A DNA stretch of 64,000 bases, taken from assembly GCA_964342815.1 (NCBI GenBank), contig CAYFHS010000005.1, positions 64,001 to 128,000 of the forward strand, in the 5' to 3' direction. Positions 7,526 through 30,282 of the stretch are shown here, piece by piece. This stretch comes from an uncultured archaeon. GTDB lineage: Archaea; Thermoplasmatota; Penumbrarchaeia; JASLWR01. The position numbers and the translations under genes are program-made. The notes under the pieces are model-generated. The model was not told the origin of the DNA. It did no database searches and saw only the letters and a list, made by a program, of their open reading frames with translations. How positions within the stretch are numbered: the first letter of the stretch is position 1; each line of letters opens with the position of its first letter.

Positions 7526-7631
7526 AGCCACCGGCGGGGATTGAACCCGCGATCTATGCCTTTTCGGGTTCGGCGCCGGGAGACCGGCACACGCTTACCA
7601 AGGCATCGCTATACCACTAAGCCACGGTGGC
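7526..7631 (-). tRNA. tRNA-Thr(GGT) with a 34-nt intron at position 37/38 (intron 7562-7595)
   Basis: Acceptor GCCACCG/CGGTGGC; anticodon stem ATGCC/GGCAT with loop TT-GGT-A|intron|A; T arm GCGGG-TTCAATC-CCCGC; exon TTGG pairs with intron CCGA to give the central BHB helix. Confidence 0.93.
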
Positions 7632-7775: not shown

Positions 7776-8756
7776 GTGATGATCACAATCAGGGATCTTA
7801 CAAAGCGCTATCCTCCGGGCATTCCAAGATGGAAGAAGTGGTTCCATCGTGGCAGCAAGGAAACTTTCCTCGGTGAACTTGCTGTGGACAGGCTGAACAT
7901 GGAGGTGGGGAAAGGGCAGGTATACGGTTTCATCGGTCCCAACGGCGCGGGAAAAACCACTACTATCAAGATGTTGGTCGGCCTTATGCCCCCTAGTTCC
8001 GGGACGGCGCTGGTATGTGGTCTTGATGTGGTTGAGGAGGGTGAAATGGTCCGGGGCAGGATCGGTTATATGCCTGAAGCCCCGTCATTCTATCCCCGAG
8101 TTTCTGTTTTGGATGTCCTGCGATATTACTCCAAGCTTTATTCCATCCCTGGCGGGTCTATCGACAGGAAAATTGCGAAGGTTTTGCGCACTGTGGGAAT
8201 CGCCGGTGAACGGGCCAAATTGTGCGGAAAATTATCTTTTGGGATGAAAAAGAGACTTTCTCTTGCCCAAGCATTGTTGAACGATCCCGAGCTGCTTATA
8301 CTGGACGAACCCACTGGTGGTCTGGATCCTGGGGGGAAGAGGGATTTCCGTAAACTTTTAACGAAACTGTCCGACCGTGGAATTACCATATTTATGTCAT
8401 CGCATCTTCTCGAAGAGGTACAGAAGATAAGTACCCATGTGGGCATTATCCATCACGGACGATTGATAACCAGCGGATCTCTCGGGGAACTTCAGGAGAA
8501 GATGGGTAAAGAGGCGAAGGTGAAGATAAAGGTAAGAGTCGCATCGACCTCAAAGATTCCCCTTTCATCTATCGAAAAAATAGAAGGAATAATTGACCTG
8601 AGGATTTCCGAAGATACAATGACCATAGTAGCTGAGACAGATAATATATCGTCGGAGGTCAACCGACTATTGGTGGAGAATGATTGTCAGGTTCGTTCCA
8701 TAGTGATAGAAGAACCGGAGCTTGAGGATATCTTTTTTGATCAGACTTCAAAATGA
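7776..8756 (+). CDS. ABC transporter ATP-binding protein (ABC-2/DrrA-like)
   Basis: Walker A GPNGAGKTT, signature LSFGMKKR, Walker B LLILDEPT, SSH switch. Confidence 0.95.
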   Translation: MMITIRDLTKRYPPGIPRWKKWFHRGSKETFLGELAVDRLNMEVGKGQVYGFIGPNGAGKTTTIKMLVGLMPPSSGTALVCGLDVVEEGEMVRGRIGYMPEAPSFYPRVSVLDVLRYYSKLYSIPGGSIDRKIAKVLRTVGIAGERAKLCGKLSFGMKKRLSLAQALLNDPELLILDEPTGGLDPGGKRDFRKLLTKLSDRGITIFMSSHLLEEVQKISTHVGIIHHGRLITSGSLGELQEKMGKEAKVKIKVRVASTSKIPLSSIEKIEGIIDLRISEDTMTIVAETDNISSEVNRLLVENDCQVRSIVIEEPELEDIFFDQTSK

Positions 8757-9235
8757 ATTCCATTTGTCCATGCCTGCTTTATGTCGTTTAGAGAATAACC
8801 CTTCGTATTGTATAGCTCGATCATATCATTTTCAGACCAGTAAGGGGATTCCCAGGGAGGGCGTCCGAGCCTTTTTCTGAATCTGGTAAGAATATCGTTC
8901 ACCACTGAAATGGAAGCCTGAGTTTCTTTGAAATCGGATGTTATTTCGATAAGTGACTGCCAGGTAGATGTGCCGATGGTTTCCGCTATGAGTTTGAAAG
9001 AAATATCCCCCAATTCAATGGATATGCTCCAGGGAAAATAATCCCTTTCCCACGTCAACCGTATATTTGGTTGGCTTCCCTTTCTCCGAACCGTCTTCAG
9101 GAAATTATCCCCCACATCGGTTAGCATCAGGCGGTCTTTGAAATTCCGAGGAGATAATATTTTACCCTTGCGAAGTCCCTTTTTCGAACAGCTGGGTCTA
9201 AGATGATTGGGGAACACAATATAGTGTTGGATCAT
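8741..9235 (-). CDS. Hypothetical protein
   Basis: 164-aa ORF with plausible composition and a GGGGTGA ribosome-binding-like site upstream; no recognised motif. Confidence 0.6.
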   Translation of the reverse strand: MIQHYIVFPNHLRPSCSKKGLRKGKILSPRNFKDRLMLTDVGDNFLKTVRRKGSQPNIRLTWERDYFPWSISIELGDISFKLIAETIGTSTWQSLIEITSDFKETQASISVVNDILTRFRKRLGRPPWESPYWSENDMIELYNTKGYSLNDIKQAWTNGIHFEV

Positions 9236-9352
9236 TCACACCCCTTTTGGATTATCGTAATATATCAGCTGGGATATTTCCAAGATAATAATAACTGATA
9301 CAGTGATCGATCTTGTAAATAATTTTTTCGGTGGATATAAAAGAATCGGAAA

Positions 9353-9756
9353 GTGCGAGTCCCCGCTTCGCTCTGGTCAATTAAAAATTGTCCTAACACG
9401 CATTTTTTCTACGAAAAAAAGTGCGAGGGCACGTTTCACTACGGTCAATCTGAGATTGCCCTGCCCTCTCCCTTTTCTCCCTTTGGTCGAAAAAGTGCGA
9501 GTCCCCACTACGTTCCGGTCAATTAAAATTGCCCTGACACGCATTTTTTCTCCGAAAAAAGTGCGAGTTTCCGCTTCGCTCTGGTCAATTGGAAATACTC
9601 GATGAATCGGAGATTCATCTGCACCCTCGGCTGGTAAGCCTACGGGTTGCCCTGACACGCATTTTTTTCTCCGAAAAAAAGTGCGAGTCCCCACTACGTT
9701 ACGGTCAATAAATAATTGCCCTGTCCCCGCCCTTTTTTTCCTTTTAGTCAAAAAAG
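9353..9756. repeat. Array of five imperfect direct repeats 3' of tRNA-Leu; plus-strand core A(n)GTGCGAG-N15-GGTCAAT-Nx-(A)TTG(C/T)CCT
   Basis: GTGCGAG starts at 9353, 9421, 9495, 9561 and 9681, then at 9756 (the tRNA 3' end). Spacings are 68, 74, 66, 120 and 75 bp. All five have exactly 15 nt between GCGAG and GGTCAA. Confidence 0.9.
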
Positions 9757-9840
9757 TGCGAGGGCCGAGATTCGAACTCGGGAACCACTAAGGACTAGAC
9801 CCTGAATCTAGCGCCGTTGACCTGGCTTGGCTACCCTCGC
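9757..9840 (-). tRNA. tRNA-Leu(CAG)
   Basis: Acceptor GCGAGGG/CCCTCGC plus discriminator A; D stem GCC/GGC; anticodon arm CTAGA-TTCAGGG-TCTAG; long variable arm; T arm CCGAG-TTCGAAT-CTCGG. Confidence 0.97.
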
Positions 9841-10286
9841 ACCTATGCATCCATTTATCGTGATTTCAATGATTTTCCTGTTCTATGCATCCAACTCATG
9901 GTCAACGGGGACCGGTTTGCAATACCCTTGTTGCCAACTAAGTTCAGCCCAAAGGGGTGAACGGAATTGACCTGGCTTGGCTACCCTCGCACCTATGCAT
10001 CCATTTATCGTGATTTCAATGATTTTCCTGTTCTATGCATCCAACTCATGGTCAACGGGGACCGGTTTGCAATACCCTTGTTGCCAACTAAGTTCAGCCC
10101 AAAGGGGTGAACGGAATTGACCTGGCTTGGCTACCCTTGCACCTATGCATCCGTTGATCGTGATGTTGTTGTTTCCGCTATATGCATCCGTTTCCTGGTC
10201 AACGGGTGCCGGTTGGCAACACACTTGTTGCCAACTAAGTTCAGCCAAAAGGGTGAACGAAATTGACCTGGCTTGGCTACCCTCGC
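9817..10286 (-). repeat. Tandem array of three 146-150 bp units, each bounded by the first 24 nt of tRNA-Leu
   Basis: TTGACCTGGCTTGGCTACCCT(C/T)GC starts at 9817 (within the tRNA), 9967, 10117 and 10263. Units 9817-9966 and 9967-10116 are identical; the third is diverged. Confidence 0.95.
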
Positions 10287-10295
10287 TATACAAAT

Positions 10296-10325
10296 CTTCT
10301 TATTATTGAATAATTATATGAATCA
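10296..10325 (-). promoter_or_regulatory. Putative archaeal TATA-type promoter for the tRNA-Leu array transcript
   Basis: Minus strand CATATAATTATTCAATAATAAG lies 15-35 nt upstream of the outermost GCGAGGG at 10286. Confidence 0.5.
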
Positions 10326-10387
10326 ATTCGAAAAATAATTTGTCAGGGTTCACCTAACTTTCTCTCCAACAATTTTGACTTGGTTGT

Positions 10388-10741
10388 TCAATCTTCCTTC
10401 TTGATCTCTTCCAGTATGTCCCATGTCTTGTCGTATATTCGATCATCCAGTTGAGTGAGTTCCAGTCGGACCCTAAGCCTGCCGTTGTCGAAAAATATGT
10501 ACGCTGACTTGACCTGCGACCTGAAGCATCTTACACTCTTACCCTTGTTGGATAGTTTAGTATCCACGCATTTGATAAGACCCATGGATACTAGTTTCTT
10601 TATTTTTTTGTAACATACTGCCACGGGGATGGCCAGTTGTTTACTGAGTTCCTGGGCTGTCTTGGGATATTTGAAGGATGCCGCCAGGATACGGAGGACC
10701 ACCTCGTCTGCAAAAAGTTTCGCTGTTTTTAAAGCTTCCAT
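10388..10741 (-). CDS. Winged helix-turn-helix protein (ArsR/HTH_20-like)
   Basis: RILAASFKYPKTAQELSKQLAIPVAVCYKKIKKLVSMGLI helix-turn-helix followed by a beta wing. Confidence 0.85.
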   Translation of the reverse strand: MEALKTAKLFADEVVLRILAASFKYPKTAQELSKQLAIPVAVCYKKIKKLVSMGLIKCVDTKLSNKGKSVRCFRSQVKSAYIFFDNGRLRVRLELTQLDDRIYDKTWDILEEIKKED

Positions 10742-11033
10742 CCGGATACACCTCTTTCAGGTCCGACCGATGATATTTTTGTCGTCATTGCCGCTTATGA
10801 CAAAATGAACACAATTCATCAAATCCAATAAATATCAGTGATACCAGCGTGTATCAATATTATTTCGTACTTCGCCATCGGTCCCCACGGGATATTTTGC
10901 CACAGTAATATAAAATACATATAAATAGATTTCGCCGGTCACCAAATGACCGACTGGTCCGTTCAAAATAGGGTCGGACAAACTCCAAAAATAGGAGTGT
11001 AAAAGACTAATATTGTTTCATTTTATAATATTG

Positions 11034-12437
11034 CTATATCGATCTGAGCCGTTTTCTATGATAGAGGATCACACCCAGAGTGAAGAGGACTACTGTAAGT
11101 ATTATCATTATCACGATTTCAACAATAACATCGCCGAAAGATGCGCCGTATGTCATGGTCTTCGACAATGCCTTACTGCATTGTGTCCAGGGAAGCCAAT
11201 CGAACAGCTCGAAGGCTTTTCCGGTACCAAGAAAATTTTCGGTGAAGGTAACGGTTGGCAGCGAAAAAAATGCTCCCGTGAGAAATGACAGAGGAACTGC
11301 CACCATTGGTCCAAGGTAGCCCGCTTGATCCTCATTCTTTGCTATTGCAGCCAGTATCAAACCCAGGGCCACAGTGGCCAGACATCCCCAAATGGCTATG
11401 AACAGAGCCAGGAATATATTCGCATCCGGGTTGAACTGATAACCCATCAACAAGGCGATACCGAGTAGTACAAATAATTGGGCCACTGCGATAACGGTAT
11501 AGGGAATCGTGTTGCCGAAAAGCATGTCAAAAGAACTCATTTTTGTCAATTTCAGACGGGTGAGAGTTCCCTTGCTTTCCTCTCTTGACAGCGATATGCA
11601 GACGCCGGTGGCGCTCATCAGAAGGGCGAAGACAATGAGTCCGGGTACCTGATAATCGAATCCGGAGAGATCGGAAACATCAAGAGCCCTGTCTTCCACA
11701 ATTACGTAAGGTTCCTGGGAGCCGGGGTCTATCTTAACAGGAAGAGACTTGGCCGATATCGCAAGGGCGATCTTGCCTGAATTGTCCACGTATGCCTCCA
11801 TGGACCCTTGGATTATCCCGCTGACGGTGAAATAGGATGAACTGGCCGGATCACCCTTTATGATGACGCTGGCAGTTACATTGATGTTCTTTGTGAGTGT
11901 GGTGCCGCCAGTTCCGTTTTCCATCATATCACTTATTAACTGCTCCATCATTTTCGATGCGTTTGTCCCGTTTTCGTTATATTGATCGTAATATCTTTCT
12001 CCGATAGAATCCGATATGGCATGCTGGACAAACCTCATGCTCTCTGCCGCTACGGCCTGTGAGAAATTTCGGGGTATTATGATATAGGCGATGAGATCCT
12101 TATCTTCCACCAGTTCCTGGGCCTCTTTTTCAGTAAGATCCTCACGTATATCGAATATATGCTGGCTGGTGTTTTTACCATTTCCGTCGAGATAAGACAT
12201 TTCTGTTAAAATATTGACGTAATTATTGCCGTGATGGATCGTTGTATTGTTAAGGATGATCCCCTCGTCCATATTGATGACCGCAATATTGTATGTAGTG
12301 TTGCCACCGGTGAATGACCCGAATGCGAATCCGAATATCAGAATGAATATCGCCGGAAAAAGAAGACTGAAAAAGAGGGCTCCCTTATCCCTCATTATCT
12401 CTTTTCCGCTCTTTTTTGTAATAGCCAGCCATCTCAT
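11034..12437 (-). CDS. ABC-2 type transporter permease
   Basis: N-terminal TM, large extracellular loop, FDYQVPGL, REESKGTLTRL (EAA-like) and five further TM helices; overlaps the ATPase gene by 4 nt. Confidence 0.92.
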   Translation of the reverse strand: MRWLAITKKSGKEIMRDKGALFFSLLFPAIFILIFGFAFGSFTGGNTTYNIAVINMDEGIILNNTTIHHGNNYVNILTEMSYLDGNGKNTSQHIFDIREDLTEKEAQELVEDKDLIAYIIIPRNFSQAVAAESMRFVQHAISDSIGERYYDQYNENGTNASKMMEQLISDMMENGTGGTTLTKNINVTASVIIKGDPASSSYFTVSGIIQGSMEAYVDNSGKIALAISAKSLPVKIDPGSQEPYVIVEDRALDVSDLSGFDYQVPGLIVFALLMSATGVCISLSREESKGTLTRLKLTKMSSFDMLFGNTIPYTVIAVAQLFVLLGIALLMGYQFNPDANIFLALFIAIWGCLATVALGLILAAIAKNEDQAGYLGPMVAVPLSFLTGAFFSLPTVTFTENFLGTGKAFELFDWLPWTQCSKALSKTMTYGASFGDVIVEIVIMIILTVVLFTLGVILYHRKRLRSI

Positions 12438-29943: not shown

Positions 29944-30282
29944 ATTACTCCCGTTTTAAATATCAGAATCGTCTCTATATAATGGTTTGTGTTGAATTGG
30001 TTTTTTTTATCATTTAGGAAATACAGACCATGCCCACTTTGTTCGGCAGAATCAAAGATTCTGCTGCACCTTCGATTTCCCCCGAAAATCTGCAGGTTCA
30101 GTCGATTTTTTTCGTCAATCGCGAGAACTGTACCCCCCTCTTTTTTTGGGCTGCTTTTTCCAAAAAAGTAGTTTTGGGCCGCTTTTTTTTCTAAAAAAAG
30201 TGATTTTTCATCATTTTGGGGAATACAATTCGTCAAAAAATGCAAACTGAGAGGTGGTGGCGGGTCTACATTTAAGAGGATA

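Follow-up and report, generated by a model that had tools for sequence, protein, structure and literature searches.

Palindromic repeat arrays upstream and downstream of a tRNA-Leu(CAG) gene in an uncultured archaeon of the Thermoplasmatota

The tRNA-Leu(CAG) locus

An intact class II transfer RNA (tRNA) gene, tRNA-Leu(CAG), lies between two arrays of tandem repeats in the stretch of DNA analyzed here, which comprises 64,000 nucleotides (nt) of contig CAYFHS010000005.1 (positions 64,001 to 128,000, hereafter the window) from an uncultured archaeon of the Thermoplasmatota (GenBank assembly GCA_964342815.1). The gene was located by ARAGORN at 9756-9840 on the minus strand, is recognized by the Rfam tRNA model RF00005 with 49.1 bits in a 200-nt piece, and is followed by a T6 run. 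All repeat units described below are read on the same, minus, strand. The open reading frames (ORFs) that flank the locus encode a helix-turn-helix regulator, parts of an ATP-binding cassette transporter, and one protein without a family match; as had been stated in the original prediction, which was made from the sequence of the window, there is no integrase, reverse transcriptase or nuclease among them. That prediction had treated the two arrays as complementary halves of a single RNA system and had offered three models, namely a precursor of roughly 950 nt cut by tRNA enzymes, control of the maturation of tRNA-Leu, and DNA-level sites left by a non-autonomous element that targets this tRNA.

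On the upstream side of the gene, Tandem Repeats Finder delimits a repeat of 3.2 copies, with a period of 150 nt, at 9817-10286, and each of the three 150-nt units opens with nt 1-24 of the tRNA. The motif GCGAG-N13-GGTCAA had been said to open all three units. It does so exactly in two of them, at 10263-10286 and 9967-9990, and is also found within tRNA-Leu(CAG) itself (0.04 occurrences expected), but the middle unit starts with GCAAG at 10117-10140 and departs from the motif by one mismatch. Unit 1 (10141-10286), the most distal and most diverged of the three, consists of tRNA nt 1-24, a four-way junction formed by helices P1, H1, H2 and H3, and a spacer, and it scores 108.8 bits with covariance model R1. 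The native promoter region is located upstream of this unit. Unit 2 (9991-10140, starting GCAAGGG with the single mismatch to the tRNA start) and unit 3 (9841-9990) were delimited by repeat alignment and the covariance model. They are 100% identical over 150 nt, and a short-read assembly cannot certify the copy number of such identical units. The final 52 nt of unit 3 form the spacer directly before the tRNA.

Behind the gene, the motif TTGACC-N15-CTCGC occurs five times on the minus strand (at 9355, 9423, 9497, 9563 and 9683, compared with 0.02 expected from shuffles), and each occurrence is directly followed by AC and a run of three to seven T, in agreement with the five units of this form that had been predicted. 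All five units lie within 410 nt of the end of the tRNA gene. Unit A (9675-9738) was defined by alignment and folding and is composed of an A-run with a G-rich strand, the hairpin GGGCAAT/ATTGACC, the mini-hairpin ACGTAGT, CTCGCAC and T7. Unit B (9555-9668) is built like unit A, and its fold and BLAST matches reveal an additional module of a dispersed family nested in the hairpin loop at about 9598-9646. Units C (9490-9551) and D (9415-9478) were delimited by alignment, the latter also by its fold. Unit E (9350-9409) is the last of the array and, as established by alignment and comparison with a sister species, adjoins native flanking sequence that is itself conserved in that species.

Related genomes that were independently assembled have the same architecture of arrays, so the arrays are not an assembly artefact. 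With this layout and the motif counts against shuffles, the existence of repeat arrays on both sides of tRNA-Leu(CAG), as first proposed, is confirmed. Fragments of the 5' and 3' ends of tRNA genes of this kind can mislead tRNA annotation and break short-read assemblies.

Structure of the upstream units

The three upstream units of this genome were aligned with two units each from the sister species and from another genus. The first 98 nt align, and the remainder is poorly conserved. The consensus fold of the unit is a four-way junction made up of P1 and the hairpins H1, H2 and H3. P1 is formed by D-loop nt 16-24 of the 5' fragment paired with an inverted copy, TTGACCNGG, and H3 is CGG-NNN-CCG, the 5' strand of which equals tRNA nt 25-27 and the 3' strand their complement. 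Judged by its sequence, the element reads as tRNA nt 1-27 folded back, with H1 and H2 apparently inserted after nt 24.

Among 30 distinct sequences, 92.8% of the cells in P1, H1, H2 and H3 are paired, compared with 73% in shuffles, and changes on both sides are found in 27 of the 32 pairs; sliding the partner columns abolishes the signal. The alignment was fitted to the covariance model, which favors structure, but the effect is large nonetheless. P1 tracks the D-loop of the local tRNA, occurring as GGTCAA/TTGACC, GGCCAA/TTGGCC and GGCCCA/TGGGCC. The stem cells number 843, of which 770 are Watson-Crick, 10 are G.T, 22 are A.C and 41 are other mismatches. RNA under selection normally tolerates wobble pairs, and the lack of a wobble excess on the tRNA strand fits palindromes that are kept perfect at the level of DNA. 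Template-switch correction of quasi-palindromes is a known mutational process, and we infer that DNA-level palindrome correction, for example of this type, would hold the upstream stems perfect rather than selection on RNA.

Distribution of the upstream units

The distribution of the upstream element was obtained with a covariance-model search. The element is present in all three genomes of the family designated f1, in 13 of the 24 genomes of family f7, and in two genomes of family f34, and it was not found in other families, for which about 120 further genomes of the phylum were sampled. All of the model matches (29/29) lie upstream of a Leu or Ser tRNA gene and on the same strand, with the nearest copy 15-72 nt away. 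The class II genes concerned are those for tRNA-Leu with the anticodons CAG, GAG or TAA and for tRNA-Ser with TGA or GCT. The element occurs in one to three tandem copies, which lie about 110-200 nt apart, and in family f7 the duplicated segment reaches 24-43 nt upstream of the tRNA. Spacers of only 15-20 nt leave no room for an archaeal promoter and so, judging from the spacing, in the genomes that have such spacers the unit must be in the pre-tRNA leader. A 17-base pattern scan of genome contigs returned almost only chance matches, and a scan of metagenome contigs returned three loci, one of which is a chance match in a bacterial ruvB-like gene.

On a metagenome contig of the sister species, the gene for tRNA-Leu(GAG) is preceded by one unit that is nearly identical to that species' own Leu(CAG) unit. 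The orthologous tRNA-Leu(GAG) gene of the genome studied here has no unit, and the boundaries of the filled site are at tRNA +1 and at 24/25. This one pair of filled and empty sites suggests that single tRNA genes may gain or lose the upstream element. A spread by recombination among paralogous tRNA genes fits the restriction to class II genes, with their shared 5' and D-loop sequence, and the near identity of Leu(CAG) and Leu(GAG) units within one species.

Variants of the upstream arrangement were seen at two other loci. An intron-containing tRNA-Leu(TAA) gene that was missed by ARAGORN (contig C12:12253-12683, locus L162) has two four-way-junction units upstream, both counted among the 29 model matches, in which a 55-nt AT-rich insert divides the 5' fragment between nt 8 and 9. 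The class I gene for tRNA-Val(GAC) (contig C20:70340-70600, locus L026) is preceded at a distance of about 250 nt by a 23-nt copy of its own 5' end. Hairpin modules lie between this copy and the gene, and two of them have a CA(A/G)GTGTG loop of the CAAGTGTG type, as in H2 of the Leu units.

The downstream units

The downstream units have a common build, in which an A-run and G-rich strand are followed by the hairpin GGGCAAT..ATTGACC, a 7-nt mini-hairpin, the last 7-10 nt of the tRNA, and oligo-T. The mini-hairpin has a G-N-A loop and two covarying pairs (GCGAAGC, ACGTAGT, GTGAAAC, GCAAAGC), and the N15 of the downstream motif is made up of 3 nt, this 7-nt mini-hairpin and about 5 nt. The invariance of N15 that had been noted holds throughout this locus, but one sister unit behind tRNA-Leu(GAG) has N14. 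A CRISPR-like array was considered as a candidate and rejected, as the variable 15-mers are covarying mini-hairpins and not spacers. Closure of the downstream unit is achieved mainly by the A-run with the terminal T-run. In unit D the 3' strand GCCCTCGCAC equals 10 nt of the tRNA end and pairs with the 5' strand GAGAGGGCA at 8 of 9 positions; the best acceptor-like complementarity is found in this unit and in the first Leu(GAG) unit.

ARAGORN detected 33 tRNA genes in the genome, and 450 nt behind each of them were examined. Similar units are present behind the genes for tRNA-Leu(GAG), tRNA-Leu(TAG), tRNA-Gly(TCC), tRNA-Gly(GCC), tRNA-Gly(CCC), tRNA-Glu(TTC) and others, and all of them terminate in their own tRNA's 3' end and oligo-T. 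The copies per locus number five at Leu(CAG), two at Leu(GAG) and three at Leu(TAG). Ten of the 33 tRNA genes are followed by their own terminal 3' 7-mer with T-rich sequence, compared with 15 of 1030 non-cognate pairs of tRNA and flank. The copied tRNA end is 7 nt long at Leu(CAG) (10 nt in unit D) plus the T-run, and 18-21 nt long in related families. Behind the tRNA-Leu genes of other families in the class there are two copies of 18-21 nt of the tRNA 3' end, the first inverted and the second direct, and the duplicated segments of this length in related genomes run from the T-loop to the 3' end. The 3'-end copy holds an encoded CCA where the gene has one, which indicates that it was copied from the gene and not from the mature tRNA.

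Comparison of the Leu(CAG) locus across three genomes, a step that the original prediction had proposed, reveals variation in the number of downstream units. There are five here and two, with nested inserts of a different kind, in the sister species, and another genus of the family has none, although the native flank has been conserved. Over evolutionary time the downstream array is thus unstable.

Downstream repeats of other types were also observed. Behind the genes for tRNA-Ser(TGA) and tRNA-Val(TAC) there is a related insert of about 100 nt, unlike the units of tRNA-Leu in type, followed in each case by a copy of approximately the last 20 nt of the gene's own 3' end (contigs C25:35400-35533 and C29:22370-22505, loci L028 and L029). 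The tRNA-Glu(TTC) gene (contig C7:110793-111000, locus L025) has three to four units of another type behind it, which end in TAGGAGCAT-like copies of the tRNA end and are separated by AT-rich palindromes.

The dispersed hairpin module

A hidden Markov model (HMM) of the downstream units shows that their inner module is present at many sites unrelated to tRNAs. After three HMM rounds the copies number at least 68, spread over 28 contigs, and the reversed genome yields none. This nhmmer search replaced a permissive regular-expression scan, the 310 matches of which were mostly spurious. Eleven members of the family are situated no more than 500 nt downstream of a tRNA gene, in every case on the strand of that tRNA. 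The module nested in unit B is the source of many scattered BLAST matches in this and related genomes. The stems of the dispersed modules are 89.6% Watson-Crick, and the orientation of the modules is unbiased relative to flanking ORFs. Folds of the sense strand are on average 1.7 kcal/mol more stable than those of the antisense strand (10 of 16 units), and neither the fold-strand test nor the orientation test settles whether the modules act as RNA or DNA.

One copy of the inner module without an adjacent tRNA, recovered by the profile search and used as a comparison member, lies in the window at 30031-30079 on the minus strand, in the intergenic region after an ORF of 1164 amino acids. It is held by an intergenic element of about 100 nt that is found with identical flanks at this and five other sites in the genome, starts with AAATCGACTGG, ends with TTCCTAAATGAT and, in the window, is situated just past the stop of the ORF.

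Independence of the two arrays

The idea that the arrays are complementary halves of one system does not stand, as the blocks in question pair inside their own units and the arrays occur separately. The partner of the upstream GGTCAA is the inverted copy TTGACC inside the same unit, and that of the downstream TTGACC is GGGCAAT, again inside the same unit. CTCGCAC is tRNA-Leu's own 3' acceptor strand with the discriminator region, so that its being complementary to GCGAG reflects nothing but the acceptor stem. The GGGCAAT/ATTGACC hairpin is also found at non-tRNA sites and behind tRNA-Gly(CCC), the D-loop of which lacks GGTCAA, so the match to the D-loop of tRNA-Leu is coincidental.

The counts of units at individual loci vary separately on the two sides. 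At tRNA-Leu(CAG) there are three upstream and five downstream units in this genome, two and two in the sister species, and two and none in the other genus, while in this genome Leu(GAG) has no upstream and two downstream units, and the Gly, Glu and Leu(TAG) genes have no upstream units and two to four downstream. The upstream and downstream arrays are independent, and either occurs without the other. An oligo-T run is an archaeal termination signal, and its presence after the tRNA and after every downstream unit makes the precursor of about 950 nt that had been proposed unlikely.

Relation to known repeats

Repeats linked to tRNA genes in E. coli reportedly go back to Egan and Landy in 1978 and Rudd in 1999 (rrA/rrB/rrF). 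Ten loci carry these tRNA-linked repeats (TLRs), with one to five of them at each; their 3' end is the same as that of the upstream tRNA or rRNA gene, and their function is largely unknown (PMC8144298). Like them, the downstream units of the archaeon stand directly behind a tRNA gene on the same strand. They too are found at several loci, with one to five copies at each, lie between terminators, and finish with a copy of the 3' end of the gene before them, though the length copied differs. In the TLRs of E. coli 18-19 bp are copied, whereas the copy here amounts to 7-10 nt plus oligo-T, and in related families to 18-21 nt; the host is an archaeon, and its units have for their body a nested-hairpin module common to a dispersed family. 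No homology of sequence to the E. coli repeats is expected. The downstream units would thus be archaeal counterparts of repeats whose function remains unknown nearly 50 years after their discovery, carried here by about one third of the detected tRNA genes and tied to a modular hairpin family.

Repetitive extragenic palindromic (REP) sequences of bacteria, together with bacterial interspersed mosaic elements (BIMEs) and REP doublets forming hairpins (REPINs), are likewise short imperfect palindromes with many dispersed intergenic copies and modular arrays with characteristic linkers. As in REPs and BIMEs, stems here change by paired substitutions, copy number varies between close relatives, and one module type has GTAG beside the hairpin. 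In bacteria, GTAG-tagged REPs are linked to REP-associated tyrosine transposases (RAYTs) (PMC3733652), and archaeal repeats of the REP type have been reported by generic palindrome searches only (PMC12306157). Unlike REPs and BIMEs, the modules described here are nested, with one hairpin in the loop of another, have a conserved GNA mini-hairpin, and include a subset that is anchored to tRNA ends and copies them. A further difference is that no RAYT or Y1 transposase (PF01797) was matched in this genome, which is 89% complete, whereas control genomes do match; TnpB (PF07282) and reverse transcriptase were likewise not found. A miniature element related to IS200/IS605 or TnpB would be expected to have subterminal hairpins along with a TnpA or TnpB gene in the genome, and neither PF01797 nor PF07282 was matched here.

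The class II-specific upstream element appears to be undescribed, as we found no description of it. Small-piece scans of 9980-10300 and 9340-9756 with Rfam 15 returned no match at E<=1. Scans of 3 kb (8500-11500) and 30 kb (1-30500) lost even tRNA-Leu(CAG) to the Infernal speed filters in this repeat-rich context, and since the filters lose an intact tRNA, negative Rfam results on long stretches are weak.

Interpretation

On balance, we lean towards the explanation that the locus holds two independent, tRNA-anchored arrays of palindromic repeats at the level of DNA, the downstream array being a variant of tRNA-linked repeats and the upstream array an insertion at class II genes that is spread by recombination and co-transcribed as a leader. 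As part of this explanation, both arrays would be built from a lineage-specific modular hairpin repeat family of marine Thermoplasmatota. The downstream array may grow and shrink by unequal recombination or slippage between the repeated CTCGCAC-Tn, and its units, if functional, would be extra and redundant two-way stop signals behind a strongly transcribed gene. The upstream element would spread among paralogous class II tRNA genes via recombination through their shared 5' sequence, and would be transcribed as a pre-tRNA leader and removed by RNase P. Of the three models first put forward, the one of DNA-level sites of a non-autonomous, tRNA-targeting element comes closest to these findings.

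Several observations sit less well with such DNA-level arrays. In both 24-nt copies of the filled Leu(GAG) site, position 12 has the local base, which a simple crossover would not predict. G.T pairs (38) exceed A.C pairs (14) on the tRNA-sense strand of the dispersed module, an excess in copies that are not independent of one another but still a hint of constraint on the RNA or on one strand. In three families the upstream unit has been retained at class II tRNA genes, with its four-way junction and a nearly invariant CGGTCCCCG, a constancy that exceeds that of the usual junk palindromes and could reflect a function. Finally, the two outer strands of the downstream units, namely the 5' strand and the acceptor-like 3' strand, are complementary at 5.9 of 8 positions, compared with 5.5 of 8 in non-cognate controls. 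This is barely above the controls, so the outer helix is mostly A-run and T-run and the likeness to an acceptor stem is not to be overstated. On the same ground, the downstream units are not termed true acceptor-stem mimics.

The alternative that survives best, which we regard as possible yet doubtful, takes the upstream unit to be a functional, cis-acting structured 5' leader of class II pre-tRNAs, or a stable small RNA released from them, and the downstream units to be mini-helix-like RNAs for tRNA enzymes. The 3' strand CCGTTGACCNGG would then have two possible partners, the decoy 5' fragment, with which it forms P1, and nt 16-27 of the real tRNA, and the choice between them would gate folding or processing by RNase P. 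Such a role is favored by the strict association (29 of 29 matches) with genes for tRNA-Leu and tRNA-Ser, by the strong covariation in all four helices, by the 15-20 nt spacers that force co-transcription with the tRNA, and by the predominance of G.T over A.C in the dispersed module. The repeat unit also extends from the start of the 5' fragment to tRNA position -1, which is the piece that RNase P would release, although the phase of a tandem repeat is arbitrary and the match to a leader is therefore weak evidence. Against it, the upstream stems contain nearly no wobble pairs (10 G.T and 22 A.C), which is unusual for selected RNA, and the element is dispensable, being missing at Leu(GAG) here, in half of family f7, and in all families besides f1, f7 and f34. 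An oligo-T terminator precedes each downstream unit, and there is no match to an Rfam family.

Control of tRNA maturation, as one of the first models had it, is possible for the upstream leader only, and a regulatory RNA role of this leader is an interesting alternative, if a rather improbable one. It is less likely still that the upstream unit represents a new class of cis-acting RNA, a four-way-junction leader particular to class II (Leu/Ser) pre-tRNAs that starts with a decoy of tRNA nt 1-24, the 3' strand of the leader pairing with the decoy or the real D-arm and so tuning folding, RNase P cleavage or tRNA level, with the downstream units processed into small RNAs. The upstream element would be either a DNA parasite of class II tRNA genes that spreads by recombination without need of a transposase, or a leader RNA with an effect on the maturation of tRNA.

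We also consider it unlikely that both arrays are scars of serial site-specific integration of mobile elements, with tyrosine integrases that use either the 5' part of the tRNA gene or its very 3' end, and of subsequent deletion, which would leave copies of the attachment (att) site together with arm sequences of the element. Direct repeats of a tRNA segment on each side of an insert are a hallmark of att sites, and pTN3-like integrases integrate into the 5' half of a tRNA gene, while the site used by SNJ2 is as short as the acceptor end (PMC8371274). The upstream array resembles att duplications of the pTN3 type in having a duplicate 5' tRNA fragment upstream of a tRNA gene that is itself intact and is then served by insert-derived sequence. 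In related genomes the duplicated stretch comprises 18-21 nt, from the T-loop up to the 3' end, and one of the four integrase matches, all of which are on other contigs of this genome, lies beside a tRNA-Thr gene. In contrast to pTN3-type duplications, however, the insert is about 100-230 nt long without an ORF, integrase or element, the copies are tandem, and the covarying four-way junction is closed by an inverted D-loop copy. In 29 of 29 cases only 15-72 nt lie between the tRNA gene and the nearest unit, the tandem copies are about 110-200 nt apart, none of these encloses an element or integrase, and no integrase lies in the flanks of the Leu(CAG) locus. For the duplication in family f7 that extends 24-43 nt upstream, a fixed att core is a poorer fit than tandem duplication. 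Integration yields no inverted copy of the tRNA segment, yet every case has one, and the hairpins covary rather than decay.

A single precursor of about 950 nt, in which upstream GCGAG..GGTCAA would pair with downstream TTGACC..CTCGC and RNase P and tRNase Z would cut the acceptor-like helices, is very improbable, for although the blocks are literally complementary and 31 upstream-downstream pairs appear when the 942 nt are naively folded to minimum energy, such pairs are to be expected wherever both acceptor strands occur in several copies, the predicted pairs are mostly local (125 upstream-upstream and 105 downstream-downstream), the comparative data back local helices only, N13 and N15 are unlike in length and sequence, and the separate occurrence of the arrays, the oligo-T runs behind the tRNA and every unit, and the TTGACC hairpin behind tRNA-Gly(CCC) and at non-tRNA sites all stand against it. 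A tempting two-sided CRISPR-like RNA system is thus replaced by two concrete and testable objects.

Two other candidates were rejected. A split or intron-containing tRNA is contradicted by the lack, on inspection, of a bulge-helix-bulge motif; both junctions are direct repeats (...GGTCAA|) and not complementary, the sequences on the intron side have no 4-bp central helix, and the downstream tRNA copy is intact alone. Retro-duplication of a leader released by RNase P was dismissed as no reverse transcriptase was found and the phase of the tandem repeat is arbitrary.

Other tRNA genes

An intron-containing tRNA-Thr(GGT) gene is also present in the window at 7526-7631 on the minus strand. It is followed by T9, has no repeats flanking it, and was missed by ARAGORN in default mode, whereas the Rfam tRNA model recognizes it with 57 bits. 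Elsewhere in the genome, a tyrosine integrase gene (PF00589, 67 bits; contig C26:51794-52829) starts about 100 nt downstream of tRNA-Thr(TGT) and probably marks a conventional integrated element.

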